A stretch of DNA of 61,626 nucleotides, counting the filler, from Hausera hauseri (Eukaryota): the NCBI GenBank assembly GCA_046269625.1. It is 8 parts of 8 records of this genome, joined end to end, with 100 filler letters (N's around TTAATTAATTAA, not from the genome) between each part and the next. Parts side by side here need not be neighbours in the genome. Positions count along the whole stretch, not along the records: positions 46,544 to 51,447 come from JBJURY010396701.1; 7 more parts are not named here. The stretch is one strand, 5' to 3'. The stretch's first letter is position 1. Every line of letters begins with the position of its first letter. The position numbers and the translations under genes are program-made. Shown piece after piece: positions 21,058 to 61,318 of the stretch. Under the pieces are notes generated by a model. That model worked only from the letters and a program-made list of their open reading frames with translations, did not search any database and had not been told where the DNA came from.

Positions 21058-21870
21058 AGACACAAGAAATATCGCTGGTGAAGACAGGCGGCGCAGTAGG
21101 AAAGTAAGTGGAAGTGATAGAAGGAAGCTAAATATTCAATGGGATGGAGACAGAAGCAGGTTAAAGAAAAGAGAGGTGAATATTGAGACCGTTAGGAGTA
21201 AGATTGTTCAAGTGGTTTATCAATCTTTGTTCCACTGTGCGTCAAGCTCTTTCATCGGAAGAGCAGAACCTGATAGCGGTGACAAGAACATCCGCAGTTC
21301 CGGAGTGACCGGGGCTGTTAAAGTTGTTAGACACAAGAAATATCGCTGGTGAAGGCAGGCAGCGCAGTAGGAAAGTAAGTGGAAGTGATAGAAGGAAGCT
21401 AAATATTCAATGGGATGTAGACAGAAGCAGGTTAAAGAAAAGAGAGGTGAATATTGAGACCGTTAGCAGCAAGATTGTTCAGGTGGTGTATCAATCTTTT
21501 TTCCACTGTGCGTCGAGCTCTTTCATCGGAAGAGTAGAACCTGATAGCGGTGAGAAGAACATCCGCAGTTCCGGAGTGACCGGTGCTGTTAAAGTTGTTA
21601 GACACAAGACATATCGCCGGTGAAGGCAGGCAGCGCAGTAGGAAAGTAAGTGGAAGTGATAGAAGGAAGCTAAATATTTAATGGGATGTAGACAGAAGCA
21701 GGTTGAAGAAAAGAGAGGTGAATATTGAGACCGTTAGGAGCAAAATTGTTCAAGTGGTGTATCAATCTTTGTTCCACTGTGCGTCGAGCTCTTTCATCGG
21801 AAGAGCAGAACCTGATAGCGGTGACAAGAACATCCACAGTTCCGGAGTGACCGGGGCTGTTAAAGTTGTT
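21058..21870. repeat. Three tandem 271-bp copies of the Penelope 3' end (GIY-YIG C-terminus + UTR)
   Basis: Units start AGACACAAG at 21058, 21329 and 21600. Confidence 0.93.
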
Positions 21871-23677
21871 GCCCACAGGCGTGGATTGTTGTTGTTTGAT
21901 GCTTCGTAGGTACTCACTGAAACGGTCGGCTAGCCTCCTACCAGTTTCACCGATACATTTCATGTTGCACCGCCTACAGATGATAGCGTAGATGATGTTG
22001 GGTGATAGACATGTGAAACAATCCCGAATGGTGAAGGAGCCACCAGGGAAGTGCAACGAATCGGCTAGTGTGACAAATGGACACGTGAGTCAGGGTCTGC
22101 CACAAAGAGAAGTGCCTCTAAGTGAGTCACGGGAGGTCCGGAGACGGCTACGGACCAAGAGGTCCTTCATGTTACGAGAACGTCTATAAGCCACCATTGG
22201 CCTGTCCTGGAAAACCTCGCGTGTGAGGGATTCAGAGAGCAGAAGAGGGAGATGACGGAAGAGAATGCACTTGACCAAGTACTGTGGGGGTGGAAGGTGA
22301 GGACAAGTTTAACCCTGTCGGAAGAATTCGCCCGCCTGAAGTTGAAGGCAGCTCCTCGTGAAAGGGAGGAGACTCGGGTGAGGGCCGATGATAGAATATG
22401 TTCGGGGTACGACCTCCTGCGGAATAAGTCCATCATCTGATGGGCGTGTGCCATGAAATCTTTGTCGGCTTGACAAAGACGACGTAGGCGCAGAAGTTGG
22501 GAATATGGTAGGGAATAAAGACAGGAGGGGGAGTGGGAGATGTTGTAGAGAAGGTAGCTGTGGGCATCAGTAGGTTTGTAGAACACAATGGTTTAGAGTT
22601 TCGTAGGTTCAATGGAGACGGTGATGTCGAGGAAGTTGACAGAAGTGGACTCTGAGTGGGGGTAAACTTAATCACGGGATGAAAGTTGCTGACAAAGGAA
22701 ATGAAGCGCTCGAGGTCCACCATGGACATGTCCATGAGGCCGATGACATTATCAATGTATCTGCGATACAGAGAAGGGAAAGGGCCCTGGTACTGATGCC
22801 ACACTGGGTGTTCAAAGTGACCCATGAATAAACAGGCGTAGCTAGGTCCCATTTTGGTGCCCATGGCAACCCCACTGATCTGGTCGAATAATTCACCGTT
22901 AAACTCATATGAGATAAGGGTCAGAACCAGCTCAGTGAGGCGGACAAGTGTGGTTGTGGAAACTGACTGGTTAGTCCTTTGATCGAGAAAGAAAGAGAGA
23001 GCCCGAAGATCATCCGCATGAGTGATGGAGGTGTAGAGAGAAAAGACGTCAAGAAGGAAGAGTTTGTAGGTCCGAGAGGGGGAAAGGGATACTGAATCAA
23101 AGATACGTAGGGCGTGGTTGGTGTCCTTTAAGAAAGATGGAAGGTGCTCCACAATAGGTTGAAAGATGCCATCCAGGAAGTCATATATGAGCTGCGTGGG
23201 GCAAGAGCAGGTAGAGACGATAGGTTATCCTGTTTATGGATTTTAGGCAGGATGTAGAATAATGGCTTGCCTAAACAGCTGTCGTGGATAAGTACCTGCT
23301 TGGCAGTGGCGGGGAGGAAGCTATCGGAAATCAAGTCCGTGACAGCAAGGTGCACCTTCTTGTTGTTACCAACAGTGGTGTCGTCGACACGGGGGCTATA
23401 AAAGGTGGCCTTGGAGAGTTGACCGCGCCTTTCTTGCAGGTAGAGATCTTTACGCCAAATCACAATGGCACCACCCTTATCGGCAGGTTTGTTGACAATG
23501 TCGTCACGACGCCGCAATTGGGAGAGAGCCCTAGATTCGATGGAGGAGAGATTAGAATATTTCAGGCGGTGGAATGAGTGGCTCTGGATAGTGTGGACAG
23601 TGTTGTCAATATAGAGGTCTAATGCCCGAGGGACACCTAGAGAACGGGTCCAATTAGACTTACGGGAGAGGAAGCGA

Positions 23678-26599: not shown

Positions 26600-29150
26600 A
26601 TGCAGTTTTTTGAAGACCATTTTACAGACTTCAAGTCAAAGACAAAGAAAGTCATCTTTAATGAGCAGCATAAGCGTGCTTCGGCAGCACAGCCTGCTTC
26701 GACAGCAAAACCCGATGCAGGACTAAAACACATAGCGGCAGCAGCAGTAGCAGCATCAGCAGCAGATGCTACACCAAAAAGCCAGAGACAACGGCCAGTT
26801 GATGTTGCAGCATTAAAGAGAAAAGTCCGCAGATATGTTATTAATGCAACTGGTCAAACAACTCTCCAAGAGTTCCTCTTATACACAAAGGAAGTGACAG
26901 AAGGAATTCTTCAGAACAACATTGCGGAGCTCAAAGTCCATAAAGTGAACATGAAACTGCAGGTCACATATATCAATGTTGATGGCAAAGAATCCAAAAG
27001 AGCATTCAAGATCCAAAATAGTCCCATATTGGAAACAACCAATATAGTAGAATGGCTGCATGAGGTGCACGCGAAGCTGATCCACTAGTCTGGGGAGAGC
27101 CAAGATAAGAAGAGCTGTTGGTCCCTGACAGCCATCAAGAGATTGCTTGTGTATATGCACAAGTACTCCCCCATGCGAGCAGTTCATATATTCAGTTCCC
27201 GGAATTGATAGTTAATAAAAAAGCATGTGTCAATGTCCATAATAGCTCCAACATGTGTTTCGTGTATGCCATTCTATCAAAACTCGTAACGGGTCAAAAG
27301 CACGCTTACCGTGTTTCACTATGTCAGAACATCCAGGATAATTATTATTTCAATTGCATTCCCTTTCCCCCATCAGTGGATGAAGTCAGAAGATTTGAAA
27401 AAGTCAACAACATGTCCATCAGCATCTTTGAATTGAATGAGGAGGATAAATTTTATCCCTTGCATGTATACAATGCGGCATTGAAAGACCATAGGGATCT
27501 GCTTCTTCCAGACAAGGGAGAAAAGAAACGTTATGTTTGGATCAAAGACTTTGAGGGTCTAGTAAGATCCAAAATGACGAAACATCATGGAGAAATAGAA
27601 ATATGCAAACGTGGCTTTTCCAATTTCAGCGGCGATGTAGCAGTATTGAAGCTTGCAGATCACAGGATTTACTGCAACAACAATTATTATATCAGGCCAG
27701 AATTTCACAAGAAGGACTATATTGAATTTAAGGAGTTACAGAAGAAGATCAAGGTCCCAATAATTATCTGTTACGACTTTGAAGCGATCCTGTGTCCAGT
27801 TCAGAGTTGTAGTCCTAATCCACAACACAGTAGCACAACGGCATACCAATATCATGAACTTTCATCATATTGCATGTATGCAAAAGGATTGAACAGTGAA
27901 CCATATCTTTTCAGGGTTGCAGGCGCAGCAGATCATTTTATGAAGTGAATTGAAGGCATGGATCATAGGCTTGAAGATATGCTGCACTAGAATAAGGATA
28001 ACATGAGCATGTCGAAAAAACAAGGAGAATGGCGCAAGGCAACAGTATGTTACTGGTGCGACAAGTCTTTCACTAAGGAGAATTGGAAAGTCAGGGATAT
28101 GTGCCATTTTACAGGCACATATCGAGGTGCGGCCTGCAACAACTGCAATCTACGCTGCAGAACATGTACATATGTGCCTGCAGTGTTCTACAGCCTTAGT
28201 GGCTATGATTCCCATTTCATAGTCCGAGAATTTGGAAATATTGAGGGGAACATTAATGTGATTCCCAATAATGAGGAGAAGTATGTCACATTTACGAAGC
28301 ATGTTGGGAAAATCAGGCTTCGCTTCGTAGACAATTTCTGTTTCATATCGTCTTCACTTGACGGTTTAGTGAAGAACCTCCCTGCAGAAGAACTCAAGGA
28401 GACGAAGCGGTTCTTTCCCACTGCATTTGACCTAGTCGAAAGGAAAAGCGTGTTTCCCTATGATTACATAACATCATTGAAAACACTGGATGAGCCCATA
28501 TTGCTGGCCAAAAAGGACTTTTACAATATCTTCTTTGATTGCGATATCAGTCTGGGATGCATTTCAATGCTGAACGTTAAGAAAATACAGCGATATATAC
28601 CTCAAGACTGTCGTGCTGCTTCTAACGGATGTCTTTGAGAGTTTCAGGGATATTACTATAAAGGGACATGCACTGGATCCATCTCATTTCTTTACGGCTA
28701 CAGGGATGAGTTGGGCGGATATGCTGAGATATACAGGTGTCAGGCTGCAGATCATAAAGGATTACGACATGGTCCTTATAATCGAGAGAGGCATTAGAGG
28801 TGGAATATTCCAGGCCATTCACTGGTACAGTGAGGCCAACAACAAATATATGGCCGAATACGACCCAGCAAAGGCATCCTCATATATATTATACCTGTAT
28901 GCCAACAACCTATATGCTTGGGCAATGAGCGCCCCATTGCCATATTATGACTTCAAGTGGACCCAGCATCCCGAAAACATCCCTATACTGGACTTAGATC
29001 CCACTGGAGATACTGAATACATACTGGATATATGTTAAATATCCGGCTTCCATCCACACAAGGCATGAACAGCTGCCTTTCCTGCCTGAGTACAAGCCTA
29101 CGCCCCATGGAAGGCATAGAAAGCTGCTCTGCCGTCTGGATAATAGGGAG
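26600..29150 (+). pseudogene. Polinton pPolB (second family), fragmented and 3'-truncated
   Basis: KKACVNVHN...CFVYAIL, CYDFEAIL, RDMCHFTGTYRGAACNNCNL, LSGYDSHFIV, SSSLDGLVKNL, RKSVFPYDY, LLLTDVFESFR, RGIRGG, ANNLYAWAMS. Confidence 0.95.
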
Positions 29151-30170: not shown

Positions 30171-33100
30171 GCGATGGAAAACAGTAACAATAATTGTGTG
30201 TTATGCATTATTGTCGTGTAATTTTATAACATTTATGACCAATCAATTCTGGAAACAACTGTTTAGAGTGACGTCATTCCTTAATGTTCAGTTTCAGTAA
30301 ATCTTCTTCTTCTCCGACGATCTCTCAATCTTGCAGCTTTAGAACATTCAAAAACAAACTACACTCATTTGTTAAACTATTATAATTATGTCTGCCAGAT
30401 AAGTAGACTTGGGTTACAGACATCCAACAGTTTATATGATGGTTCGAGCCCATATGCATTCATCTATTCTGTGCGTGTGAGATTAGAGTATCTGCATGTA
30501 TTTAAACTTATGAACACGTTTACTTAATTTCAACGCTTATTTTACTTATGCAATGTTCATTTGAAGTGTTGTTGAGTGTATTGAACTGAATGTGTGAGAT
30601 GAGAGTATGTGCATGTATTTTAAACTTATTAGTATGAATACTTAATTTCACTGTTTATCTTCTCGTATAATGTTCATTTGAATTGTTATGTTTGTTGTCT
30701 AGGGCAGAAATGTAAAAAGGCTAAGTGCCTATTTCTCNNNNNNNNNNNNNNNNNNNNNNNNNNNNNNNNNNNNNNNNNNNNTTAATTAATTAANNNNNNN
30801 NNNNNNNNNNNNNNNNNNNNNNNNNNNNNNNNNNNNNTCTTTTCATCCTTTTTTGAATTTCCTGCATTTTTATTGGCTGTTTATTATTTCAACTTTGAAT
30901 TGAATTTAAACTTTGATATTCGTTTAAATTCCTCCTCACAGTAAGAAAGGCCAGAAACGAATATGAAGAGAAATTACAACTAATGGAAGTCTATCATGGA
31001 TTAAGAGAACCACAAACCGAAGAAAAATATGCACTGGCATTAAACAGTGCTAATATGAAACGTAAAAAGTCTATTTCCCGAGAAATAACTTAGTCAGAGA
31101 AACCAACGACATCTGAGAATGTAGACTTGGACGCATAATCCGAGAAGTACAGCCCAGGTAAAACACAGATGAAATCAAAAGTGAATTTATTGGTCCTTTA
31201 GTTCTCAAAATAACGAAGAATAAGGGTAGAAGCCCATCGCCTAATAGAAAATTAAAGACTCGCTCGATGTCCCCCGTCAAAAGAGACGTAAAAGAAAAGA
31301 AGGCTTTTATGCCGCTGTTCTAAGAAACGACTCATCCTTAGAGACGGCCATTACTCCTAAAAAGAACCTAAAAACGTTGGAAACACCAGAGGCGATAAAC
31401 ATTAATGACGAAATCAACGAAATCTGCCCACTTCCCGCTAGTGAGAATAAACAGAAGACAATAACGATTTTGATACGAGGAAATGGAAAGTTCGACGTCC
31501 ATGGAAGAATGCTGAGGAATTAAATCGAATGAGAACCAGATGTCATGATTCGGAAGTACTCCAACATAATTTAGAAAGACTTAAACAGATCAGTAAGCAA
31601 ACAGATATATCGGGTAAAAAACAACAATTTGTGGAAGAACTATGAGTTTAAAATTAGGTGGCTAAGGAAAGCTCGAAAAAGCAATCGAATTGAGACAACT
31701 GGAAGAGGTGCCACAGGATACGTTGACAAAATGCAACCATAAATTATAGTCATGGAGTAAAAGTGGAGTCGAATTTTCGGAAGGATGGAATAAAGAGGAA
31801 GATAGTGTCGGCGTGAGAGTCGCTGAAGTACAGATATTACTATCCACTTTAGAAGCTAAACACCAGGTGAAAAGAGTGGTCCGTAACTTAGAACGCAAGG
31901 TGGATGAAATACGTTATGCAATGATCAATCGGCTTAGAGAAAAACCGGTCAATAACCGGAGACATCGATTTAGAAATGCTGGACATAGTTCCAGTAGATA
32001 TTTCTCCATTATTGGAAAAGATAAAAATTGCCTTTGCGAACTCAGACGATGTGCGGACTTAGAGAGTCGCATTAAAATGGAGAATAAAAAAACATCGCAG
32101 ATCAGTAGTTTAAGAAATCTAACCATGTTTACGAATAATTAAGAAACAAAATGTAATAAAAGCTTGAATCATAGAATTCGACGAATATAAGGACGAGTTC
32201 AACTATATTTAACCANNNNNNNNNNCATATAAAATGTTAGACAAGGCAATATTAGCAAAACCGATAATCGCCAACCAGTTGTAGGAATGTTCCGAATTAA
32301 TAATGAGAATATATAAATTAATAGAGGACCGTAAAAAAGAATTTCCGAAAAGTGAACCATCTATAAGAAAACGACTAGAAGGGACACGTAACTTAGATAA
32401 GATACAAGCAAGATACGTATCCAAACGCAATTCGAAGCTTTGCGATGATTAAATTTTATGAAGAAGAAGAAGAAGAAGAAGCAAAAAACCACAATATTGG
32501 AAGAGATTTATAAAATGATCAAAGAGACAAACTTTATAGAAAAGCAAAATATGACTTGTAATTTTTATCCCAGATTAAGGAACATCCGACTAGAAGTAGT
32601 CAAACAATTAACAAATAAGCCTATCTACGAGATTTCAATACACAATATCGAAACATTGGACATTTGTTCAGGACATAGACCGGCCTTAATAGAAGCAGTG
32701 AGATTCTTGTATAAGCCACAAGAATGGATAGCCGGCACAGATCAAAATTGCCATACCGAGTTGAAGAAAATAAGAAACGACCGACATCTTAGTTTTGAAG
32801 AGTTTAAATTTGTGAAGAAACTGCTCGATGCAATGGATCCCGATTTAAAAGTCATAAATGAAATGTACGACTTAGCCTTCTTATTAGTAGAAATGGCGGA
32901 GACCAGTGACGTGAGGATGAGGCAATTGATGCGTAAATTACAACAAGTTGAAGAAACGTGCATCAGAACAAAACAAACAGCAACGAGGCTAGACGAATTA
33001 GTAAAAGGATTCGAAAGCTACAGGAGTAAATACGCTTTTACCGAATCACAGATCAAAAATAAGCAAGAGTTTGTGCAGAGATGGCGAAGGGACGTAATTA

Positions 33101-33599
33101 TTGAACTAACCGATTATCACCAGAAAGGATTCATCAATTCTAATGAATTAGGCAAACTACTGAAAATGATTCAGCATGCCTGTTGAAACGGAATAGGTTT
33201 CAGGACTACGCAGATGAAAGAAATACAACAAAAATTGAAAGAATTTCGAGAAATTGCACAAAAAACGAACACAGTCCTAGAAGACTATGGACTTCCCGAT
33301 ATTGGGAATAAACCAGAATGGGATGCTTATTTAGAAGCAATAACGGCCGAAAATCCAATAACTCAAGTACACCTAAATGAAATAGAAATGTATCTGCAGA
33401 ACAGGGAATTCAATGTAGAGATGCGCCTGGACTCAGCGTTAACCGAAAAGGAATAGATTGAATTAATTAATGTAAATATTATCGAAAACAAGCTCAGACA
33501 ACTCATACCAATTTTGACTAAATTATCCAGTGAAAACATGATTTACAACACGGTGCCGAAACTCTTAATAAAGAAGTATACGGAAAATTTGAAGAATAA

Positions 33600-33835
33600 A
33601 CCTGAGGCAACGATGACATTAATGATATCATCCGAGTGGATGGACGAAAAAGAATGTGAGTTGACCACTTATTCTTACGTAAAGGACGTAAGAGAATGGT
33701 TATTAAATAATGGTGGAACAAATGAGGTAAATTACAGATTTTACTTTAGAGGAAGAATACTCGACGATGTAGAACAGTTAATAGACGTCGGAATTATCCC
33801 CGACGAAACAAATTGGATAGTAGTAACAATAGCCA
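33600..33835 (+). pseudogene. Ubiquitin-like domain within Gag extension (copy 1)
   Basis: MTLMISS..EKECELTTYSYVKDVREWL...NYRFYFRGRILDDVEQLIDVGIIPDETNWIVV fits the ubiquitin pattern (TIENVK..QRLIFAGKQLED..L.DYNI) over about 72 aa. Confidence 0.7.
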
Positions 33836-34557
33836 ACAAACAGACGAAATAAGAAGCTACGCGAATGGCTAAAACGGAATAATGTGTAGGGAAAATTATG
33901 AGAGTAGGAGATGCTTCAATTTATTTCGAGTATTTACAGACGGATGATAACAAAGAACAATATGATAAAAACCTAGTACCGATAAGTGGAATCGCCACCC
34001 ATGTTCCAAGGCCCAAACGCCCAGTCGGTAGGCCTAGAAAAACCCGAGAAGAAGTTGACTATAACGGAGAATTAATTAGAGAGCTGAGACACATGTCAAT
34101 TCTTACCTTTAGCACAGACAATGAAGAATTAAACGAGTTAATGAAAAATTCAATACGTGTCGTAAATTATTCAAGCCTTCGAGGGGATACATTAGATGAT
34201 AAAGAAAAGGCGATATTTAACTCAGCTAGAACGATGAAAAATTCGCGTTTCAAGCTGTCAAAAAGTAGTCTAACTGACGACGCAGTGGTTGAGAAAATTA
34301 TGGTGGAGAATAAGACAGAAGAGCTAAGAAAAGTATTATTGTACTTGGCAATTAAGAAAAATCCAAATCGCGAATACGAACTAAATCGAGCTACAAGTAT
34401 GGCGTGAAAAGCAGCTAGAAAGCTTCCATGTGAAGTAAATTGGCCAAAATTATTTGACAAAGAAGAAGACAAGAGGAACAGTAGTAATAATGGACTAGGA
34501 GACATCATACGGAATTTAACGACAACGGATAATAACAACCGGAAGAATGAATCTAAT

Positions 34558-36745
34558 TGGTTAATTAGTTTGCTCACCATAATGATGCTGATAAAACAAA
34601 TGGGCGCTGTCACCATCTACGATTGCGACAGATTTAAGCTTGGACAAAAATACTCACTAATGGACTTAGAAGCATGTGAAGACGTCAGACCACACAAATT
34701 AGAAACAAAGCAGAAGAGTTATTTCCTATACCAACAAGAGTTGATATGTTTAGATGGCATGGAATGCATGCTGAGACGATCTCGTAGTATTTTCCAATGT
34801 GGACTAATGCACGGACACTCCTCGATAATGAAACCAACGACCCCTCCAATTCCAATGAATTTGGAAATACAACACTACAAGCAGGCCCGAGAAACCGGAA
34901 GGCTGAAATGGGATAGTATGAAACTAGAAATGCAGCCCGGAAAGATAATCAGAGCATAAAAGGTAGTAGTTGGACGGCTAGATATGAAAAACGGACACTG
35001 TAGTGGAGCGGAATACGACACAGGAAAAGGATTAGAAGAAAACATAGTAGTAGTGGACTTTTATGAATCGGAAATGCAAGTCCAGAAAGTGATGTTCCAT
35101 AGCGTCACTAAGCTATATACGAAGAATCAAAAATGTCACATACAGGACGGCACCTGTAACTTCAGAAGCTCTGTCGTCACATGGGAACCACCCACTGGAA
35201 AAGGCTGCAATTTTATTAAAATTAAGGAATTGAAGTTTAATGAAACTACCAGGAAGCGATACGTATACAAGTACGATATCAGTTCAAGAGCACGTGAAGA
35301 TGTATCAGAGCATCATACACCTACGATATTAATCTCTGATCAACATGGATTGAAATTCATAAAAAGGGAAATGATTTCACGTTGCGAATTAATAATGTTT
35401 ACCACTAACTACGAAGCGTTCCTTGTCGTAGAAATGGAGATAAGCGCGAAAACATACAACTTAGAAACGCAAGACATTAGAATCGAAGATTATCTGAAAA
35501 ACCGAGACGATTTTTTCTATTATAAAGGACAAGTCGGGATAGCCAAGCTATACCATAAAATGATAACTAATGATTGTAAATTAGATACGGAAATTATGAG
35601 GACAAAATTAGCCCTTATTTATGCGAATCCTGAGTTAGCTTCACCGATCATTCCCATGAAAGAAGGAATTTTTGGTCGGGTTACTGGTGAAGTTCTACTA
35701 ACTTATGAATGCGAGAAAAGAGATGTACCAATTAATGTCGAAGAAAAGCGATGTATACAAGAGCTACCTGTAATCTACCAAAACACCCCGCGCTTAGCTA
35801 TGCCTCTCACTTGAGTGTTGCTCGATAATGCGACACAACCAACCATTCTAAAGGATTGCAAGGCAAGTTTGGGCGAACCGATGTTTAGGCATAGCGAAAT
35901 AGATTGAGTTAGTCTACCTAATGGAGGCGTCACTACCATTTCTAAAAAACTAACTGGGACTAATTTAGCAAAAGGAATTACCGACGACAAGTTACAGGAT
36001 ACATTTTAAAAAGGCATTTACCGGCCAAAAGAGATCGAAGCTTTTCGATAATTTCTTGCTTTTCCACGACAGCGAACACAAATTAAACCGAGCTATGGCA
36101 TCAGTAGTAGACGATACCCGCTACCAGACTAAATGGGAATCCTTGCTTGGCGTGAACTATTACCATCGAGTAACCACTGAAATACTCTACAAAATATGGG
36201 GAAGATTTTTAATTTTTGGACAAGCTGCATCTGGATTCTTAGCAGTCTATTTCATGGTACAACTGGTAAAGGCGGCAATTCAAGCGGTTATAAATGGGTA
36301 TGAAATATTTACGCTAACAGGATTTTCTTGCAAGATCTTAACCGCGATTATCACACCGTTTGGAAAAATGCTAAAAGCATACGAAGAAAATCGATGGGAA
36401 AATGACATTGAACGCCATGTCGGCTATTATAATTACAAACATCGAACAAGACCCATATTTCGACTAAAACGCAAGGTTAAGAAACCAGTGACACGAACAA
36501 ATAACTCCGATGATGACGATCCTAAGGGAGGAGATGCGATCCTCAGACAAAATAGACACAAAATGTATTCAGTAATCAGAGCACCCTTACCTATCATACC
36601 GCCAACGGCTCCGATATACGAGGATTGCGACAAAACATCTATGATGTCAAATAGATCGGCATTCTGTCAGAAACCCTTCAGATATGAAGATCCTTACTCT
36701 AGGAACAAAACAATATGGAGTATTAAAGAAAATGCAAATCACTAA
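34558..36745 (+). pseudogene. Chuvirus-like (class III, gB-related) envelope glycoprotein with signal sequence, TM region and cytoplasmic tail
   Basis: Hydrophobic WLISLLTIMMLIKQMGA then IYDC..YSLMDLEAC, C..RSIFQCGLMHGHSS, GHCSGAEY, C...GTC......W....GCNF, LYHKMITNDCKL, GRVTGEVLLTYEC, CIQELPVIY, IWGRFLIFGQAASGFLAVYFMVQLVK..INGY; cysteine spacing as in chuviral G. Confidence 0.88.
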
Positions 36746-37039
36746 TTAAAGACGAGCAGATGACCATGGGATATTGTACTCCCCGAGAATAGCTCGCAAT
36801 ATAGAGACCAGGTCAACAGTCTGGGGAACGCAAGGAGTGAAGTCGTTCCAAAATCCAATAGTACAAGAACCATTAATTAGAAACAATACGAATAACATGG
36901 CAGTTAACGACTTATACCCTAACGAAGAACTGAAACAGCTGACTGAAAATATTATTTCATCACCAGAGATAACGATAAACGGATATAAAATTTCTTCGAT
37001 CAAACGACCAAAAGACGTGTCGAGTTGCTATGGGTCAGT

Positions 37040-40000
37040 TATGAAAGGAAGACCCTTCACAAAAGTTACCATTGAAGATTGGGAGGTTTATGCCTTAATC
37101 GACACAGGATCGAAAAATCGTTTATCAAATTAGAATTAATACCGCCGACACTACGAAAGCATCTGCAGCCAGCATCATCATCAGACCAGGCAGCATAGGA
37201 GCCTTCGGTCAAGAATCCAAACCAAAGTTTAAATGGAGTCCTCTAGTCCAATTAATGGGCCAAATCCTTGACACAACTTCGCCATAATGGACTAGCTTAC
37301 CGACGACGTAGTATTAGGATGTGATATACTGAAACAATTACCTAATGTCACAATAAATTTACAAACTGGAAAACTACTTGAACTTGGACCAGTGAAAGGG
37401 TTTAAAACCATGAAAGAAAGGAAACATGGAGAAGTATGGATCCCGTCAACGAAAATATTCTGCCCAGAATCAAAATGATAATTTATGCTCAAATCCGCGA
37501 AGATGACCAACCAGTATATTTTGAACCACAGGAAGACGTTAATCCAAATATCATACTTAGTAACATTTTGAAAAGAGTAACGACAGGAAGAGTACCAATC
37601 AGATTAGTAAATAATGCACCAACTCCCGTAAAATTTTACGCCAATACTCATTGGGCCATACTTATAAAGTATCGGCAATAACAATTGAAGAAAAGCCATA
37701 CAAATATTCTAAATTTCCACCTCATGTCGAAACGAAATTTTCACCAGAAGCGTACTGCCAATTTTACGAATTATTGTGCAAATATAAGTCGATTATTGCC
37801 CAAAATTAAGAAGATATAGGCAGAGAAAAAACGCTAAGATTGACGATCCCATTAAAAAAGAAACCTGGCTCCAATGACGAAATTGATTCGGAAGAGCAAA
37901 AGATGCCAAAATGGTACCCACCGCCTCATTCATTAAGGCCAGAAATAACTAAAGAAGTGGAACGCATGTTAAAGGCCGACATAATACGACCAAGCTACCG
38001 ATCTTGGTATTCGCCAACACTTATGGTCAAGAAAAAAGATACCACAAAACATCGATTTTGTATAGATTATTGAGCCCTAAACACACTTGTGATGAAAGAC
38101 TCATTTCCACTACCATCAGTAAAAGAAGCTTTAGACAGATTATCAGGAGCAAAATGGTTTACCACGCTAGATTTACAGTCAGGATATTGGCAGGTAGAAA
38201 TTGAAGAAGATGATCGTTATAAAACAGCATTTAAAACGCACGATGGAGTTTACGAATTTTATGTCATGCCGTTTGACATAACAACCGGTCCCGCCATATT
38301 CACCAGAATGATGAATAAGATGTTAATTGGACTAGATCACGCATTCGCATATTTAGACGATGTAATGATAGCATCAAAAACTGAAGACGAACATCTAAAG
38401 GACATCGAGAATACTCTTATGCGATTAGAACAAGCAGGATTGAAGCTGAACCCAAAGAAATGTAAATGGGCACAAAACGCTGTATCTTATCTAGGACATA
38501 CAGTCGGAGAAGGAGGATCAAAACCAGATAAATCTCTATTAAATAAAATATCGGATTGCATTGAACCCCAAAATCAGAAAGAATTAAGGAATTGGTTAGG
38601 CTTATGCGGATATTATGCCACCTACGTACCAGACAATTCGAAAATAAATGCACCATTATATCGGCTATTGAAAAAAGGCATAAAATGGAAATGGCCCGAT
38701 GTTGAACAGAAAGCATTCGACGAAATGAAGACAATTTTAATAAGTGAACCAGTGTTAAAATACCCCGACTTCAGCTTACAATTCATAATTAAAACAGACG
38801 CAAGTAAAGAAGGAATCGGTTACAAATTGGCTCAGAAACGAGAAGACGAAGAACTGGAACATCCAATTGCATATAGAGGACGATCGCTTAAGAAAGCTGA
38901 GAAAAACTATTCAGTCACTGAATTATGGACACTAGCCGTGAAAGAAGCCTTGAGACATTTTAACGTTTATGTCTACGGACAGAAAATTATTATAGTTACC
39001 GGTAATAAAGCTTTTACCACGCTAAAGGGACGGGCTAATAACCCGACGTGTAGACTGAATCGATGGATTGAGGAAATTTCACGGTACAATATTGAATTTC
39101 AGTATAAACCCGGAAGTAAACATGTAGACGCAGACGCCTTATCAAGACTGAAAACAAAGACAAGTACGATTACAACCATGAAGAAAGCTCAACTGGAAGA
39201 TTTAGTCGAGCGACAACGGACCTTGACACTAAATAAAACAATCAAAATTTCTGCCGAACAAGCTAAAGATAAAGTTATCCAACAAATAGTTAAATTTTCC
39301 GAGCAAGATGAGATACCAAAAGGACGTCAACTAAAGAAACACTTACAGAGACACGGACACAAATATTATGCATCGAGTCCAGATAATATCCTATATTACG
39401 AACGCAAAGGACGGAAACTGGTAGTCATTCCGAAAGGATTGCAACCGGAAGTATTAATGGCTGAACACGACTCACATTTAGTTGGACATATGTCGTGGAA
39501 GAAAACATTAGAAAGAATATTAAACAAGTATGACTAGCCAAGCGTTTATATCGACGTAAAGAACTGGGTAGACGCTTGTGAAGTCTGCGCAACAAAACAA
39601 AGAAAGGTGAAAAACTATATAGCAGAATTGAAACCGATCGACGTACCAGATAGACCTATGAAAGCTATGTCTATGGATATAGTAAGACCTTTACCTACGA
39701 CTCATAAAAATAATAAATACATATTGACATGCCTAGATCGTTTGACACACTTTGTGGAATTAATCGCACTGATTGATCAAAAGGCAGAAACTCTAGCAGA
39801 CGCAGTAGTGAGGAAAATCATTTGTAGATATGGACCGCCAGATCAAATACGAACCGATAGAGGAAGAAACTTTACAAGCGAATTATTTGACAAAATTTCC
39901 AAAATCTTCAAAATCGAATGATTAACTACTACCGCGTATCACCCTCAGTGCAACGGGATGGTCGAACATATGAATGCCACAGTCATACGAGTCTTATCAA

Positions 40001-40460
40001 CCGTAGTAGCGAAGGATCAAAAGGATTGGGATGAATTTTTAGAAGGAAAATAATTCGTTATTAATACTACTCCACACCCCGCCACAGGATTTACACCATT
40101 TTTATGATGTATGGACGCGAAGCAATTTTGCCTACGGACTTAGGAATGACTCCGTATTACGCAAATCCAAAAGATTTAGAGCCAAATTTCGCAGAAGTCC
40201 TACAAACGCGATTACAAAAATGTTGGAATATAGCCAGGACACTTACTCTTGAATATCAAGAACAGTTTAAGAAACAATACGATAAGAAGGGAATTGGATC
40301 TATGTACAATACCTAGTCGCAAAGAAAGGCACCTCATTAAAACTTACGCGTACTGGACGAGGACCTTACGAAGTTATTCGCATCAAACCAACTACTGTGT
40401 ACATTAATAAAAATGGTAAAGAAGAGGTAGTATCTATACAGAGAGTCGTTAAAACAGAAA
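37040..40460 (+). pseudogene. pol: Ty3/Gypsy pol (PR-RT-RNase H-integrase with GPY motif)
   Basis: ALIDTGS; RFCIDY, LDLQSGYWQV, KTAFKT, YLDD; TDAS, NYSVTEL, DADALSR; H..GH..CEVC, MDIVRPLP, TDRGRNF, TAYHPQCNGMVE, GRGPYEV. Confidence 0.97.
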
Positions 40461-40539
40461 TAAAACTTGAAAAACGCTATAATCTGCAATCTAGTTCGCA
40501 TCAAGATAAAAAGAAAACAAAAACGTCCTCTATAATCAA

Positions 40540-41333
40540 TAGACCAATATCTTACATTCAAATAGTTTTAGCATTATCGCTAATTGTCTCCTATATCCCG
40601 AGAACACAAGCTAGAGGGTGGTACGATAGTTACGGAGTTCGAACAGTCGAAGGAAATTAAAGACAAGAATATATAAGAAGATTACAAGCAATAAGGATCC
40701 ACTGTTACTCGCCTAACTCCACATGCGTCGGATTTAAAACACGGAAACTACATCGGAATTCTGGAAGGATCCAAATTGTCTTAGATGATGTAATAACAAG
40801 AGAAACAACGAATTGTGACTTGGAGTCCTGAGAACGTACGCAATGTTGCGACATAGATTTCGGACATCAAGAAGTAAAACGGAACGAAATATTGCGATCC
40901 ACTGACCCAGACATAAGATTACTAAACGAAAACATCCAGCGAATCTCCGTGAATAAGAAAAGACAATGTATTCAAGTAAATACTCGGAGGGAGCTAACCG
41001 TCAGTCGGGAAATCAGTATCGTGTTCGAGGCAGTAATAGGACTAACTCCGAAAATAGAATATTGTTCCATTCGGGCAGGTGTACAACATCCGTGTTGTAA
41101 AATACCCGTGAACCAAGAATTTAAAATAAGATTTGACTTATACGAAATACGGCCTAATCAACCAAGCATACAATTACGAATCTACTATCCAGAAAACAGA
41201 ATTAGGAAAATTGCAATAAAAACCTGGACTAAAAAGTCGACCGCTCGAATTATCACGACGAACAATATATCTAAAACAAAAATTGAAGACATACCTATCA
41301 GATATTCGGTCCATCAGGATAGAATAGTGTTCT
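40540..41333 (+). pseudogene. Post-integrase ORF led by a signal-peptide-like segment (putative secreted/surface protein), open to contig end
   Basis: YIQIVLALSLIVSYIPRTQA in frame with the integrase C-terminus, followed by Cys-containing sequence with two point stops. Confidence 0.55.
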
Positions 41334-46553: not shown

Positions 46554-49500
46554 ATGGCAGAAAACCAGGCAGTAGCTCAAAAATTGGATATTTTTACATT
46601 TGACTCGTTAAATTTGCCCGAATATGACGGAGATCCGGACGGACTCAGTGAATTCTTAAGGACATATAAGTTGCATGCAGAAGGTGCTGAACTAGCAGCT
46701 AACGTAATGATCAAGCATCTATCCTTATATTTAAAGAATCTGGCCGCTGATGCCTATAGTGAACTCACAGATGACAAAAAGAAAACTTAATCCTCACTGG
46801 TAGGAGCCTTAAATCGAAAATTGTTACCGACTGTAACTCCTCAGCAGAAATTCATGGCTTTTCAGAATAGAGTACAACAAAAGGGTGACTCGATAACCCA
46901 ATTCGCTTTTGCATTAAAGGAATTGGCAAATAGTTACGTAAGCACAGTAAGAATAGCAAACATAACAAAGGCTAAAAACGAAGCAGAACGTGAAGCCGCA
47001 GAAAAGGCAAGTTCTCCTGATTTAGACGTCATGATGATGACGCAATTAATAAATGGTATTTGGGCTAAATACATAGTAAAGCAATTGATTCTTGTACACC
47101 CCGAGAATTTTTATAGGACATTGCAATTAGCCCAAGATTTAGAAATGGCATTGGCCCGATATACTAGAGACAATGACAGAAATGACAGAAACAATGATCA
47201 CGGCGAACAAAGCGATAGAGATCGAAATAATAGAAGTGATAGACGATTTAACAGGAATTATGGGGATCGGAACAAGAACAGTAATTATGATCGCAGAAAC
47301 GACCGATACAGTAATCAGAATTTTGATAATAGTCGAAATTATTTTCCTAGTAAATCAAACTATCATATGGATAAAGGCCTGGATTTCTCCAAAAAATTTA
47401 ATCGGCAGAATGATAGCCGAAATTACGATAATCGCCAATATGGAGACCCTAGACAGACTCCGTCGCAGCAAAGCTATAATAGAAATCCAATTAGATCGAA
47501 ATTTCCGTTAAACGAAGATGGCAGACAGAGAATCGGTAAAAATGGCAACTTAATTTGTTATACATGTGGACAAGAAGGACACATAACGAGGTCCTGTCCA
47601 AATCCGCGAAGTGTCTCGTTTTTCGAACCTAGTAAAACTAATGTAATTAAAAATGAAAATTTAGAAGCAATTTACGGTGTTCGTAGAGACACAGGTATGA
47701 TTATTGAGATACAGGATTTACGACGTTTCTTAAAGGCTCAGCCCGTAACTAATGACCCCAAAGTTTTAGTGGCTGTAAACGAATATGAGCACAATTTACG
47801 ACTAATGGAAGTTTACCATGTCCTGCGTGAACTAGAAACGGAATATGAACGTTCTATTGCCCCTCCAAGGCTTACTGATATGGCACGGAAAAAGAACGTT
47901 CCTACCATAAACAAAAAGTTAGATAAAGTACAAAAGCCTGAGACACCGGGCGAAGCAGATTTTGATGTAGAACCTAATTATACCATAAAAACGGTATCTA
48001 AGGAGGCAGAGGTCAAAGAAAAAGAAGAATTTCTTGAACCACTTATACTTAAAATTACCAAGAATAAAGGCCGTAGCCCATCGCTGAGACGGAAACGTAA
48101 GGATCGTTCGAGATCCCCGATGGGTAAGAAGCCGGACACAAAGAGACATGCGGAAATCGCGTTAGAGAGTGACACTGAGTTTGATTCGAACACTCCTGAA
48201 ATTAAGGAAATGGGTAGCGAAACGGTATCCATGAATGAAATAAATGATATATGTCCTTTACTCACTAGCGAATAAGAAGCGGAACAGAAGGAGAAACTCG
48301 ATCCCAAAAAGTGGAAGATCAGACGCTCGTGGAAAAGTGCAGAGGAGTTAAAAAGAATGAGGACAAATTGTCGAAACCCAGAGGTATTACGACAGAACCT
48401 AGAGAAACTCAAGGCAATGAGCGAACAAGTGGATATTTCTGGTAAGGAACAGCAGTTTGTAGAAAGACTATATAAAAATATGAAACTATGTAGTGAAGGG
48501 AAACTAAGTGAAGCTATAGATTTAGATCAGCAAGAAGAAGTGTTAATAGAAACACTAATCCAGTGGAAACGCGAATTAGACCGCTGCATGAAAGGTGAGA
48601 CGAAAACTCCAGAGACGTGGGATAAAACTACCCAAAGCATTGAAACTAGAATCAATCAAGCCCAGTCGTTATTAAATACACTAGAAGCTAATCCGAAATT
48701 AAAAAGAGTAGTACGTAACTTAGAGCGTGTTATGGATAAAATTAGATTCATCGTAGTCGACAGACTAAAAAAGAAGCCGGTTAAAGAACGAACTGAGGTC
48801 GATCTAGAAATAATGGGTATACATGCATTAGACATTCCGCCCTTAATGGAAATGTTAAAAATCGCTTCTACTGCGACAAGGCAATACACCAATCTGGAAA
48901 ATCGTATTAAAATTGAAGTCGAAAAACGGTCGCAAATATATAGTCTAAAGAGTAGAATTATGCACCCAAATAACGAGGAAATCCAGAGAATAATTATAGC
49001 TTGTATCCTCGAATTCGACGAATATAAAGACGAGTTTAACTATGCCTGCCGGATCACCGATTTTATTAGAGGTCCGGATGATGAGCTAAAAGACGCCCGC
49101 AAAATGTTAAACAAAGCTATGTTGGCAAAGCTAGAAATCTCTAATCAATTAAACGAGTGATCCAAAATAATAACAAGGTTGGGTGGATTAATAAACAGTC
49201 GGAAAAACGAATTTCCGGAGAGCGAACCTACAGTGAAGAAGCAATTGGAAGAAGACGCCCGAAATTTGGATACGATGAAAGTAGAAATTGATATTCGAAC
49301 CCAATTCAAGTCACTGCGTCGGTTGAACTTTATGGACAAGAAACAAGAAATGATCATACTAGATGACATATATAAAGCGATAGAAGAAACAAATTTTACA
49401 CAAAAACGAAATCGGATTCATGACCTCTATTCAAGTTTGAGAAAAGTCCGCCTAGAAGAAATTCAAAATTTGACCACCAAGCCTATAGAAGAAATATCGA

Positions 49501-51230
49501 TCCGTGATCTTAAGACGTTAGACGTTTGTTCAGACTACTTGTCGACCCTCGAAGAGGTAGTAACATTCTTACATCAACCCCAGGAAAGGGTGGCTGGAAC
49601 TGATCAAAGGTACCATACCGAACTAACTAAAATAAGGAATGACCAACATCTTAATTTCGAAGAGGACAAATTCGTAAAAAGGTTACTCGACAAAATAGAT
49701 CCAGACTCAAAAATTATCAATGAGATGCATGAATTAGTACTACTAATGGTGGAAATGGCAGAAATCAGTGATGAGAAATTAAGACAGATATTGCCACAGA
49801 TACGACAAGTTAAAGAAACTTGCATTAAAAACAAACAAAGAGCAATGAGATTGGACGAATTAACTAAAGAATTGGAATCATATAAAGTTAAGTATGCTCT
49901 TATAGAAGCACAAAAGAGTGACAAGTCGCAATTTGTGCAAAGATGGCAAAGAGACGTAGCTTCCGAGTTAATTAATTATCAGGAAAAGGGATTTATATCA
50001 GCCGAAGAACTATGCCAGCTGCTAACCGTATTACGCCGAACTTCCGAAAATGGACGTTGTTTTCGAACCATTCAGAGTTACAGTGCAACAAAAACTACGA
50101 GAATTAAGAGAATTAGTAAAGGAAGCAAACTTAGCCCGGCCGTTAAGAACCCCGGAAGCCGATTTCGGATTACCCGAAGATGAGAACGAATGGGACGCAT
50201 ACCTGAACGCAATAATCGCCGAAAGTCTGAAAACTCCAGTACACTTGAACGAACCGGTAACTAGCCCGCCAGATCAGAAATTCCGTGTAGAAATGCTTCT
50301 AGATCCGGCACAGACTGAAAAGGATCTATTTAGGTTAATCAATGTAGACCTCACTGAAAATCACTTAAACGGTTGATCCCCACTCTAACCAAATTGGCCA
50401 GGGATGGTACAGTCTATAGTGCTGTGCCAAAACTTTTAATCAAGAAATATACAGAATTCTTGAGGACAAGGCCCGAAGAGGCAATTAAAGTAAAAATAAC
50501 GGCTGACTGGATGGATGAAAAGGAGCAAGAGTTCACTACGCACTCCTCTGTAAAGGATGTATTACTATGGATGAAGAACAATGGTTACGCCCATGAGCTA
50601 GACTATAGACTCTATTTTAGAGGAAGGATACTGGGCGAGTCGGAGTTATTGATAGAAGTTGGAATTATTCCCGATGAGATAAACCGGTTAGTGGTAACCA
50701 TCGCTATTGACGAAACAAAGGAGGAGGCTATAAGAAAAGCGAAAGCAGAACAGCAGGTAGGACGCATAATAGGAGTAATAAAAAATTAAATTAAAGTAAT
50801 ATATTTTGAGTGCCTGCAGACAGACGACGATAATGAGCAATATGATAAAAATTTGGTACCTCCAAACGGTAGTGTCCCCGTTCCAACAAAACCAAAGCGA
50901 CCTGTGGGTAGACCACGGAAGACACGGGAAGAAATAGACTATAATGGAGACCTAATTAAAGAATTCAGACAATTGTCCATACCGACCTTTAGTGCGGATA
51001 ATGAGGAACTAAACGAATTGATGAAGGATTTGATACGAATAGTAAATCACTCTAGTCTAAGTGGTTATGTATTGGATGAGAAAGAAAAGACTATAGCGAA
51101 CGCCGCAAAGGCGATGAAAGATCTTCGGTGTAAATTATCGAGAAATACCTTAAGCGAGGAAATAATAATTGAGAAAATTATGATAGAAAATACTACAGAG
51201 AAATTGAGAAACGAGTTACTATATCAGTAG
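46554..51230 (+). mobile_element. gag: Large Ty3/Gypsy element copy 2: Gag (capsid, CCHC knuckle) plus a roughly 1200-codon extension with UBL and AT-hook
   Basis: LPEYDGDP..FL..Y, RVQQKGDSITQFAFALKELA, CYTCGQEGHITRSC; one frame from 46554 to about 50050 with three point stops; YRLYFRGRIL UBL; KRPVGRPRK. Confidence 0.9.
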
Positions 51231-51547
51231 TAGAAAAATGCCGGTCCTAGCTCACCCCCGGCCCCCCCATGCAGCCAATCCGAAGGTTGCTTGATGCGCA
51301 CACCCGCACGGACGGGTAGATTCTACGACGTATATTTCAAAAAACACACCGTGCACGGTGCACGGTGCATCCCGGAAGCAGGGGAAGTGCACGAAAAAAG
51401 CGGATGTAAGAAGGAAGTGGTGCACGGAGGTGTGTGGCACATAGAAANNNNNNNNNNNNNNNNNNNNNNNNNNNNNNNNNNNNNNNNNNNNTTAATTAAT
51501 TAANNNNNNNNNNNNNNNNNNNNNNNNNNNNNNNNNNNNNNNNNNNN

Positions 51548-52779: not shown

Positions 52780-55700
52780 ATAACTATCAATATCTTTTCT
52801 CAGATGCAAATCTGCTGCTTTCGGTTCTACCGTTTCTGGTGATTCTAACTCTATTTGTTTTATGAAGTCATTGTACGAAGAAGGAGCTCTCGTAACTCTT
52901 TGTACGGATATGGCTTCGTATTTGTTTGATCTTTTTTGGATAAAAATTGTTTGTGGGAGTACATACACGACTTTATATGGTCCTTGACATGTGGGTGTCA
53001 GTTTCAACTATTTCCATCTTTTTACAGCGGAATAATGTACCATTACATAATCACCAATTTTGTAAATATGTGAACGTGCCTTTTTATTAAACTGCTTCTG
53101 GTAACCGGCTTTGTATTTTTGCTTAAATTCTTTAGGTTCCTTTTCAAAATACTCAAGTCGCTTAAGTAAATCTTGATATAATCCATCCATAGGGTTACTC
53201 GTTTTCAAGGAAGATGGTAGTTATTCAGAATCTAATGGTAATAATGGTAATCGTCCGAACATTAATTCAAATGGTGAATGATTGGTGTTTTTCGTAGGTG
53301 TAGTGTTTATCGCGAATGCAGTTGTTTTTAAATGTTGGTGCCAATCTTTCTGATCATGGGTGACTTTTGTGGACAGGATACCTTGAATTGTTTGATTCAT
53401 CCTTTCAACCATACCATTACACTGTGAATGGTAGGATGTAGTTAGCAAGTGTTTGCATTTAAAAATCTTTGTTAATTTCTCGAAAAATTCGCTGATAAGA
53501 TATTGTGCGCGGTCAGTTAATAATTGCTTTGGCGTTCCTAATACGGGCACTCTTTCATAGAAAAAGGCTTTTTCGACAGTACTGCTTGTCATCTTTTTCA
53601 ATAGGACCAAAACTATATATCTCGAATAATAATCTACGAGTGAGAATATATATTTATATCCTGAATAGGATGTTGGAAAAAGTCCCGAAATGTTTATTGA
53701 ACAAACTTCCATAGGCTGTCGGGATCAGAATGGCTTCCGAGAAATGTTTTTGTACGAAATCCTCTATCTTTTCGAGTTGCGTACATTTTGCAAGAGCGTA
53801 TCCATCCTTCAATATGTTTGTTCATCTGAGGCCCATAATATTTCGCTGTTATACACTTTAGTGTCTTATTTAGAGATGGATGACCTGCTAGATGCGAATT
53901 GTGTTCTTGTAACATCACGGATTTAATTACTATATTAGGTACGATTATGATTTTTTGTTCTCCGACATTGAGTTTTAGAATTCCATTTTCAATTTCTAAT
54001 TGTTCCCTTTGTTTTTCATAAAATTTCTGAATTTGACTTGACACTTGTTCAGACATTTGTCCATTTACTATTTCTTTGACTTGAACAATAAATGGGTCTT
54101 GATTTTTTAAGGTTTCAATATTTTGAACCTGAACTTGTCGTTGTTCCTGTAACATGTCATTTATAATTTTCTCGTCTAATTGTCTGTCTTTCTCTTTATC
54201 CATTGGTTTATGTACAGCAGCTACCTATTTTTCGTAAGGTAATCTCGAAATTGCCTCTGCGTCTGTGTTTTTTTCGGGTATATATTTATATTCCATATCG
54301 TAATTTAAGAGCTCTAACTTCTATCTTTGGAGTCGGCTTGATACATATCTGTTATCTGAACGCAATGAAAGTAATGCTTTATGGTCGGTGTATACTATGA
54401 TTTTGTGTCCATAGATGTATATTCATAGTGACGTAGTCCATCACGTATTGCTAACAATTCTAACTCCGTGGTAGAATACTTTATTTCGGCGTTATTTAGA
54501 CCACGTTCTCCATAAACAATTACGTGTTTAATAATCTCATCTGGGCTTTGTTGCGCTAGTATGTAACTGATTGCTTTGGTGCTGGCATCCGTCTTTAAAA
54601 TGAATGGTAAGGAGAAATCTGTATATCTCAATATTGGTGCTGATACTAACCGTCGTTTAATTTCATCGAATGTTTCTTGATTTTCTACGGTCCATTCACA
54701 CTTTTGATCTTTTTTCAATAGTTTGTACTGAGGTTGATTAATTTCACCAAAATTTTCAATAAATGTAAAATAACATCTTCCTAATCCTATCCAAGCTCTC
54801 ATCTTTGGACGCTGGTAGGCGGGAGATACTCCAATATCTTGGATATCAAATCAGGATTGTCGGTATTCCTTGGTTTGAGATTACAAATCCTAGATATCTA
54901 ACTTTCGGTTTGCACCATTCACTCATTTTCAGGTTCAGCTTTAATTTAGGTAATCTGATTTGATCGAATACTTATCGTAGTACGACTAAGTGTACTGATC
55001 ATATTTTGATAAACCTCGTACACCTTTTAAAACTAGACGAATAAATTGTTGGAAGAAAGTTGGTGCTGTCTTTAATCCGAATGGCATACATGTGAATTGA
55101 TAAACACCTGCACGAGTCTTAAATGCTGTCTTCCAACGGTCCTTTTCAGCCACTGGAATCTGACAAAATCCACTTTGCATATCCAATGTGGTGAAGTATT
55201 TACAATCGTTCAATTCATCAATAATGTCTCGCATACGTGGTATCGGATAAGCATGACTCACTAAATGCTTGTTCAGTGTAACGTAATTTACACACAAACG
55301 GTGTTTCGTAGTATTGGTTTTCTTTGCCATAACTATAGATGATGACCATGGTGACTGACTAGGCTCAATGAAACATTTATCCAGCATTGTCTGTATTTGC
55401 TCCTCAACTTCCTTTTGGAGTACTTTTAAAGGTGGATACCACTTTGGAATAGGTTGTCGCAATAAATCTATCTCTTTTCCTGCCTGAGGATCAATCAAAA
55501 AGACGAACCGTCCAATAACAGTTTCATCTTTTGTGAATATATCAATATATTTATAAATAAATTCAGAGAAATTATCTACATATTCAACTGATAAATTTTT
55601 CTTCGCTTTTGCGAGAAAAGTGTCGAGCGTATCTTCAACTGTCTTTTCTTTATCTGAAAAAATTTTAGCAAGTTTTTCGTCAATTTCAACATGACGAACT

Positions 55701-56412
55701 GTTTCGCATGCTTGTCCCATTTTCATTTTCGGAAATAATGTCATATATTTTGGCGATGGATTAAGTACTTCAATAGGAATTGTTAATCCATTTGTATTGA
55801 CACAGTAATGTGGAAATATAAGTCCATTTAAAAGAATTTTCTATACGAATTCAATAACACTGTTATCTGGAAATATTGTTCTTACATGAATAACCATCCT
55901 AGAATTCGCTAGTATTCTCTCAGTGTGGCCTATCCAAATATCCGTGTTTCATAATCTCTGGGAATGTCCTCATTATTTGGACAGATAAATCCTGATTTCA
56001 GGTTTTCGTAAAACATTCCTATAATGCATCGAGGATCTAAATTATTCCTTATATCCAACGTTGCTTTATTCCTTTGTCCAAAAATCATATGTTCACATTT
56101 CCAATATCCATACAGTTTTAAACATTGTTGAAAAGCTGAAGTAATGCCCGTACATTCTTTTAGGGCTATCTTTATTTGCAATTGGAGTTCGTTGGGTATC
56201 ACATATTTGGCTATTAAAAAGACGCTAGCGCCAAAGCCTATCATAGCATTTATATCGAATGTGTAGAAGTGGCTAGTGGAATGCGGTCGATTATCTCTTA
56301 TTAATTCAAGAAATGTTAGTACGTCATTATGATCGTCTATATGTAGTTCCATCAAGGTATAACTGTCTGCATAATAATTTGTTATTGTTCCACTTGATAG
56401 TATAACTGCCAA
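52780..56412 (-). mobile_element. pol: Large Ty3/Gypsy element copy 3: pol (PR-RT-RH-INT), decayed
   Basis: AMIGFGASV (degenerate PR), PKWYPP and TTKHRLC shared with copy 1, LDMQSGFCQI, TDAS, EHNSHLAGH, TSYHSQCNGMVERMN, QGPYKV. Confidence 0.93.
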
Positions 56413-60603: not shown

Positions 60604-60751
60604 CCCAATGGGTGATTTGTATAAAAAACTTTTTTGTTTAAATATTTAAAGAAATAAAAACTGTTGTTTTGCCGTTCGACGGTCTTTACAAAACTATTGT
60701 TTTATAATTGCATGTATACATATTTTTCGAGATTTTCTTGATAATCAAAAT

Positions 60752-61318
60752 ATGTCCGTTGTTTATGCTGTAATTCTACGAGGTACAACCGTACTGGCAA
60801 ATTACTCGAAATTTCTTGGAAATTTCGACTATATCATATTGGAGTTAGCTAAACGGAGTTCTGAAGAAACGAAGGGATCATGCCAACATTTGGATTACAT
60901 TTTAAATTTCATTGCGGAGAATAATGTGACATACGTTTGCGTGACGGATTGGGATTTCAGTCGACAGGCGGGCTTTCAGTTTTTAGATATGATCAATGGA
61001 AGGTTTAAGGAAAAATATGGAATGTTCATTGAAACGGCGCTGCCCTACTCCATGACTCCAGAATTTTGCAACATAATGAAGATTTACATGGAGCATTTCA
61101 ACAATAATAAATTAGCAGCACTAGAACAATTTGTTGACCATCTTACTAATAAAATGAAACAGAACCTTCAACGGGCAATACAACGAATTGATGCCTTGGA
61201 TCACGATCAAAACGCCACTAAACAATCGGCTTCATTAACAGATAAACTCCATCACATTCATATTGCTATGGATCTGTCGTATAACTGCCCGTTTATTGAA
61301 CAGTCGTTTGAAATGTGA
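60752..61318 (+). CDS. VAMP7: Intronless VAMP7-like longin R-SNARE, divergent, no TM anchor
   Basis: VYAVILRGTTVLA..GNF, YVCVTD.DF.R..F.FL..I..RF...YG...TALPYSM..EF; partial SNARE helix VDHL..KM.QNL....QR. Confidence 0.88.
   Translation: MSVVYAVILRGTTVLANYSKFLGNFDYIILELAKRSSEETKGSCQHLDYILNFIAENNVTYVCVTDWDFSRQAGFQFLDMINGRFKEKYGMFIETALPYSMTPEFCNIMKIYMEHFNNNKLAALEQFVDHLTNKMKQNLQRAIQRIDALDHDQNATKQSASLTDKLHHIHIAMDLSYNCPFIEQSFEM

Follow-up and report, generated by a model that had tools for sequence, protein, structure and literature searches.

A ubiquitin-like domain within a selected Gag extension of a broken and probably Burro-type Ty3/gypsy element in the Hausera hauseri assembly

Why should the Gag protein of a retroelement continue for more than a thousand codons beyond its CCHC knuckle, and is such an extension kept by selection? 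The question is raised by a 61,626-nucleotide stretch of joined contigs from the Hausera hauseri assembly GCA_046269625.1 (hereafter the window), which carries two copies of one Ty3/gypsy element, copy 1 on the contig at 30838-41333 and copy 2 on the contig at 46544-51447. Because linkers of N separate the contigs of the window, the copies are two members of one family and not neighbors. An initial annotation of copy 2 had described about 1200 codons after the knuckle, and all the motifs it quoted are present; we counted about 1,210 codons between the knuckle and the stop at 51228. In our view this region is probably the cargo part, kept by selection, of a broken gag-env-pol element, likely of the Burro type known from planarians. 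It would have been made as one polyprotein together with capsid and envelope (Env), and its ubiquitin-like, AT-hook and possibly Bcl-2-like modules would have the host cell as their target.

Both copies are decayed and the extension frame is closed in each of them. In copy 2 it is interrupted by stops at 48273, 49158 and 50787 and by frameshifts near 50050-50085 and near 50365, and copy 1 has more frame breaks than copy 2, so that the extension was rightly annotated in two copies but is an open frame in neither. Their DNA is about 61-63% identical across long blocks. Codon pairs were counted wherever the two copies could be aligned locally, leaving out stops, gaps and N. In 976 aligned sense-codon pairs, the amino-acid identity was 0.576 and the proportions of synonymous and nonsynonymous differences (pS and pN) were 0.79 and 0.24, giving an uncorrected pN/pS of 0.30 (bootstrap 0.27-0.34). 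Since the synonymous rate (dS) is saturated, the true ratio must be below 0.30, and with a dS of 2 or more it would not exceed about 0.14. Of 140 four-fold sites, 38% were identical, against 28% expected at saturation. The ubiquitin-like domain (UBL) alone had a pS of 0.76 and a pN of 0.22 and the helical pieces had a pN of 0.18-0.35, and this similarity indicates constraint over the entire extension, with the UBL no exception. Local alignment is biased toward well-matched stretches, but the contrast in identity between second (0.79) and third (0.45) codon positions is independent of that bias. The extension has been under strong purifying selection, and the annotated conservation of selected accessory domains at the protein level, despite nucleotide divergence, is borne out by a ratio far below 1.

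On the modeling and profile evidence, the UBL is a true beta-grasp fold, as the annotation had predicted. Single sequences gave weak Pfam matches, to ubiquitin in copy 1 (E 0.048) and to UBX and Rad60-SLD_2 in copy 2 (E 0.1), and a PDB sequence search with the lone UBL piece gave chance matches only. A three-sequence profile reached ubiquilin-2 at E 1e-5, its best single-domain matches being ubiquilin (E 1e-5 to 1e-4), and in the Atlas an 84-residue UBL piece adjoined the ubiquitin and Rad60-SLD clusters (0.92-0.93). The AlphaFold2 model from three sequences has the order strand-strand-helix-strand, with a predicted local distance difference test (pLDDT) of about 47-65 across the UBL, and nearly all the Foldseek matches listed for it were ubiquitin, SUMO or Atg8 folds. 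VIA, which re-examines Foldseek's own matches, aligned the model to ubiquitin over 70 residues with a root-mean-square deviation of 2.5 and a Z of 8.3, a value that is only moderate (model residues 44-118 correspond to 50487-50711). Identity to ubiquitin was 13-18%, and in the profile alignment the UBLs of the window have tyrosine where ubiquitin has Ile44 and arginine where it has Lys48. No GG was found 3' of the UBL in copy 2, copy 1 or the metagenomic relative described below, and the lack of the di-glycine in all three lineages rules against a ubiquitin-type cleavage site, a role that the annotation had offered for the domain. Ubiquilin UBLs are likewise integral and without di-glycine; the one described here is set inside a retroelement polyprotein.

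A full HMMER search through 1.84 billion representatives recovered two proteins, P0006 and P0007. The latter is a 997-residue Gag on metagenome contig L001 with a CCHC knuckle, two helices, a UBL, GRPRK and a helical domain. The Gag core of copy 2 aligned with it (tblastn E 3e-8 and 2e-6), and the two pre-UBL helices together with the UBL scored above 1000 of 1000 shuffles against it for both copies; its own UBL matched ubiquitin at E 8.7e-5. The Env of L001, of the glycoprotein B (gB) type, is 29% identical to that of copy 1 (E 3e-56), and its signal peptide and Env stand in the Gag frame as in the window. L001 differs in being without most of the 600-residue helical block and in having a recognizable Bcl-2 domain. 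This C-terminal helical domain matched PF00452 at E 0.023, under the cut-off; all 45 Foldseek matches listed for its model were of the Bcl-2 family (best E 5.7e-3), and a PDB search found sponge BHP2 at E 0.76. A PDB profile search from the alignment of the corresponding slot in the window recovered no Bcl-2 member. Word-index protein searches with the UBL piece among longer proteins and with the three-sequence profile gave no new relative, the same search with residues 570-997 of P0007 found only itself, and the viral contigs scanned held no relatives. A further contig, L002, matched over a short stretch of low complexity and was set aside.

The best kept part of the extension lies between the UBL and the last helical domain. 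There, KRPVGRPRKTREE is identical between copies 1 and 2 at 13 of 13 residues while 10 of its 13 codons differ synonymously, which makes it the most conserved stretch of the extension. Its KRPVGRPRK scored 13.1 bits for PF02178, under the cut-off of 17.4, and has the GRP core flanked by basic residues that the definition of an AT-hook asks for; AT-hooks as a class bind AT-rich DNA in the minor groove. The pattern GRP[RK][KR] arose in 80 of 20000 shuffles. GRPRK also lies 3' of the UBL in P0007, so the motif is kept in all three lineages. We found no description of an AT-hook motif for such elements, though other Burro papers may mention it; the term is absent from the accessible text of PMC6431247 and PMC13524379, and GRPRK from the supplement cells of the latter, of which the long ones were visible in part.

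Copy 1 supplies the downstream context, an in-frame envelope gene that the annotation had missed. Its Env matched PF24664 above the cut-off in three pieces within 34408-36742 (E 1.6e-8, 5.5e-16 and 4.2e-15), with hydrophobic stretches at 34561, signal-like, internal and in frame with the extension, and at 36209. Pol matches were to PF00077 (a weak protease match, E 0.049), PF00078, PF17917/17919, PF17921 and PF00665, so that the order is extension, Env, protease, reverse transcriptase, RNase H and integrase, with the pol order of Ty3/gypsy. In the sequencing run X1, 11,551 contigs matched copy 2 at a likeness of at least 80%, covering 30 of 30 bins, as expected for a high-copy repeat family. 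Copy 1 has three stops within 33800-34800, and at these positions 82%, 82% and 96% of the X1 contig depth shows a sense codon; no indel in this interval reached the 50% threshold among the 40 of 81 difference rows listed. As most related contigs are without these stops, the family most likely had cargo and Env in a single frame; the frame from Env to Pol in copy 1 is obscured by decay.

Where does such an element belong? In the accessible parts of PMC6431247, Burro1/GYPSM1 of Schmidtea mediterranea has a 4,873-residue ORF1 (first open reading frame) with the order Gag-CCHC-Smc-MATH-BIR-ankyrin-Ubi2/SUMO-like-BCL2-Env-PR, in which the Ubi2/SUMO-like domain lies in the Gag extension between MATH and BCL-2 and Env is in frame before the protease (PR); Dugesia tigrina carries a Burro-like element. 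Judging from this layout, the UBL-bearing Gag extension most likely belongs to a published architecture, as a further and smaller member of the Burro kind, and the annotated view of a UBL as unusual for a Metaviridae Gag is not supported, if unusual is taken to mean undescribed. Shared with Burro1 are a CCHC Gag opening a very long ORF, a long helical stretch that is likely the Smc-like one, a UBL before Env, a BCL2-like slot (in the window by position only) and an Env of mononegaviral type between gag and pol, in frame with Gag. The differences are one knuckle here and two to three in Burro, about 1,630 residues 5' of Env and about 3,600 in total, if Env and Pol are in frame, compared with 4,873-5,140, and an AT-hook motif that the accessible text of PMC6431247 does not mention for Burro. 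Burro1 has BIR, MATH and ankyrin cargo and the window element gave no match to these, so it is not Burro1 itself. With Smed_errantivirus_1-6, as far as these are shown in PMC13524379, it shares an Env before Pol, the gB type of this Env, a Ty3/gypsy pol and a multicopy state; unlike the Platyhelminthes errantiviruses there, the copies here are decayed, and the likeness is judged by eye. The words ubiquitin, AT-hook and Bcl-2 are all absent from the main text of PMC13524379. Going by the element type, the host is likely a flatworm.

Several results weigh against our reading. Both structure models are of low confidence (mean pLDDT 41 for the UBL and 47 for the L001 domain), and neither had a Foldseek match at E 0.001 or better among the matches listed. 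The Atlas held no usable match to the Bcl-2-like domain of L001. The slot in the window had no Pfam Bcl-2 match, and against the L001 domain 751 of 1000 and 332 of 1000 shuffles equaled or beat its score; with no match and an alignment no better than shuffles, its Bcl-2 label follows from position only. Pfam searches of the stop-free pieces that cover the copy 2 extension, with E values of up to 1-10 admitted, gave no match to BIR, MATH or ankyrin. On L001 a single stop (3055-3060) stands between the Bcl-2-like domain and the Env signal peptide. Finally, X1 is the sole public run with this DNA and is possibly the source sample; no RNA run was listed, which has no bearing on expression.

If the region is host-acting cargo, we suggest the following course. 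In the general manner of retroelement polyproteins, the long ORF would be cut by the protease of the element, with signal peptidase acting at the internal Env signal; the cargo, on the cytosolic side of that signal, would be freed and stay in the cytosol or nucleus. The UBL may serve as a docking module for a proteasome or ligase partner, as integral UBLs do, rather than as a conjugated or cleaved ubiquitin, and the basic arginine-serine (RS) motif and AT-hook could carry the cargo, or complexes bound to Gag, into the nucleus and onto AT-rich DNA. The last helical domain may be a drifted Bcl-2-like descendant that aids survival of the host cell during activity of the element. The role of an adaptor to ESCRT that the annotation had also considered has no motif to support it in the extension: neither PPxY nor P[TS]AP occurs in ORF1 of copy 2 or in the 652 tested residues of copy 1, and the single YPxL-like match, in copy 1, has no equivalent in copy 2. 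The only P[TS]AP found is a PTAP at about 36602-36613 (+) in the predicted cytoplasmic tail of the copy 1 Env, which makes this tail a likelier place than the extension for a budding function.

The cargo might instead serve the particle itself, with the UBL and helices aiding Gag maturation as folding or spacer modules and the AT-hook tethering the integration complex to chromatin. This we consider unlikely, though it would explain why every module lies within the Gag frame, why no stretch is better conserved than the AT-hook, which recurs in L001, and why the constraint is alike along the extension. The predicted Bcl-2 fold of L001 points rather to host modulation, as does the anti-apoptotic role of Burro1 B-IAP in planarian stem cells that PMC13465017 reports in its accessible part, citing Lee et al. 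2026; and because L001 is without most of the helical block, the block is not essential to the family.

Less likely still, the element could belong to a separate gag-env-pol lineage from some other invertebrate phylum, with a UBL captured independently of Burro. GAG-ENV-POL elements with gB-type Env occur in nematodes and bryozoans as well as flatworms and are not monophyletic, according to the accessible part of PMC13524379, and the kinship with Burro is read from domain layout. However, the order of UBL, Bcl-2 slot and Env equals that of Burro, L001 has the predicted Bcl-2 fold, and its Env by eye suits the planarian set, being closer to the Schmidtea C1a rows than to the bryozoan rows in the visible part of the PMC13524379 supplement. 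A ubiquitin insertion of pestivirus type, cut by host deubiquitinases for polyprotein processing, would agree with the genuine ubiquitin fold and with the pestivirus polyproteins with ubiquitin inserts among the weak viral fold matches, but it is largely refuted by the missing GG in three lineages, the low identity to ubiquitin and the best single-domain profile match to ubiquilin, an integral UBL, and we regard it as very improbable.

Under the cargo reading, the Burro layout extends to a smaller lineage whose cargo, by its codon statistics, was long under purifying selection. The surprise is limited, since both copies are dead and their architecture has already been published. The minimum shared with L001 (two helices, UBL, GRPRK, a helical or Bcl-2 domain, and Env) suggests a family core to which the BIR, MATH and ankyrin of Burro1 are add-ons. 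A bolder form, which we hold only tentatively and think doubtful, makes the UBL, AT-hook and Bcl-2 cassette an ancient core, so far undescribed, that compact Burro-like elements have in common, with the AT-hook as a chromatin tether toward AT-rich DNA and the helical block as a further captured host-modulating domain. If true, the AT-hook would steer a capsid-derived complex or survival cargo to AT-rich host DNA. Whether the Bcl-2 slot of a lineage without BIR can do the stem-cell protection reported for Burro1, as far as the accessible part of PMC13465017 describes it, then becomes a question of interest.

Table 1. Coordinates in the window of the features of the two element copies.
Feature	Copy	Position (strand)	Remarks
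Gag core	2	46554..47597 (+)	ATG 46554 to CCHC knuckle; in-frame stop at 46788
Gag extension	2	47598..51230 (+)	3 internal stops and 2 frameshifts
Basic RS / nuclear localization signal-like motif, KGRSPS..RSRSP	2	48066..48119 (+)	putative function
Predicted helical block, ~600 residues	2	48276..50075 (+)	no family assignment
Two predicted helices	2	50364..50480 (+)	immediately 5' of UBL; common to L001; model H2-15, H19-37
UBL, integral beta-grasp	2	50487..50711 (+)	no di-glycine; YRLYF at 50604
AT-hook-like KRPVGRPRK	2	50895..50921 (+)	
Helical domain in Bcl-2 slot	2	50931..51227 (+)	shortened in copy 2; assigned by position alone
Gag extension	1	30934..34560 (+)	5' end lost at contig edge
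UBL	1	33604-33849 (+)	59% identity to copy 2 UBL
AT-hook-like motif	1	34015-34041 (+)	
Helical domain in Bcl-2 slot	1	34051-34480 (+)	assigned by position alone
Envelope, gB / mononegaviral-type class III	1	34561..36742 (+)	broken
Pol: protease, reverse transcriptase, RNase H, integrase	1	36750..40500 (+)	broken

Copy 2 has a single CCHC knuckle at 47556-47597 (PF00098, E 1.6e-5). Of the RS motif, KGRSPS is retained in copy 1, where the second half reads RSMSP. The annotated long helical or coiled-coil blocks stand as helical by composition and amphipathic periodicity alone (helix formers 0.61, proline plus glycine 0.04, 100-degree moment 0.80). The large block had no Pfam match above the cut-off, and P0006 is its one outside relative (E 1e-18). 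By analogy of layout it is likely the counterpart of the Smc-like stretch in Burro, and it would most likely be a spacer or an oligomerizing rod.

Both contigs terminate within the element; the giant Burro-type elements have an internal region of more than 25 kb. From 51231 to 51447, copy 2 no longer matches copy 1, is richer in G+C and has a far greater X1 depth, and this is probably another repeat. The stop on L001 is in frame with no ATG ahead of the signal, which may reflect decay or read-through. Read-through of stops between cargo and Env as a device common to L001 and copy 1 was considered and, for the window family, rejected; the sites differ and that of copy 1 is not shared. No match to a dUTPase-like domain, which Burro-type elements have between protease and reverse transcriptase, was found at that place in copy 1, where the region is frameshifted. 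Downstream of its integrase, at 40544-41333 (+), a hydrophobic, signal-peptide-like stretch precedes some 250 codons that include cysteines and have no Pfam match, possibly a second surface protein.

Other features of the window lie outside the two copies. A second, distant Gypsy pol (reverse transcriptase, RNase H and integrase) lies at 53221-55840 (-) and is 36% identical to the reverse transcriptase region of copy 1. Pieces of protein-primed polymerase B and endonuclease VII, which we take to be Polinton- or adintovirus-like, occur at 4993-5856 (-) and 27991-28638 (+). An intronless frame at 60650-61318 (+) combines a longin domain with a partial synaptobrevin and is VAMP7-like, and tandem arrays with units of 32, 34, 271 and 23 bases are found at 19412-20328, 21058-21877 and 14275-14716.

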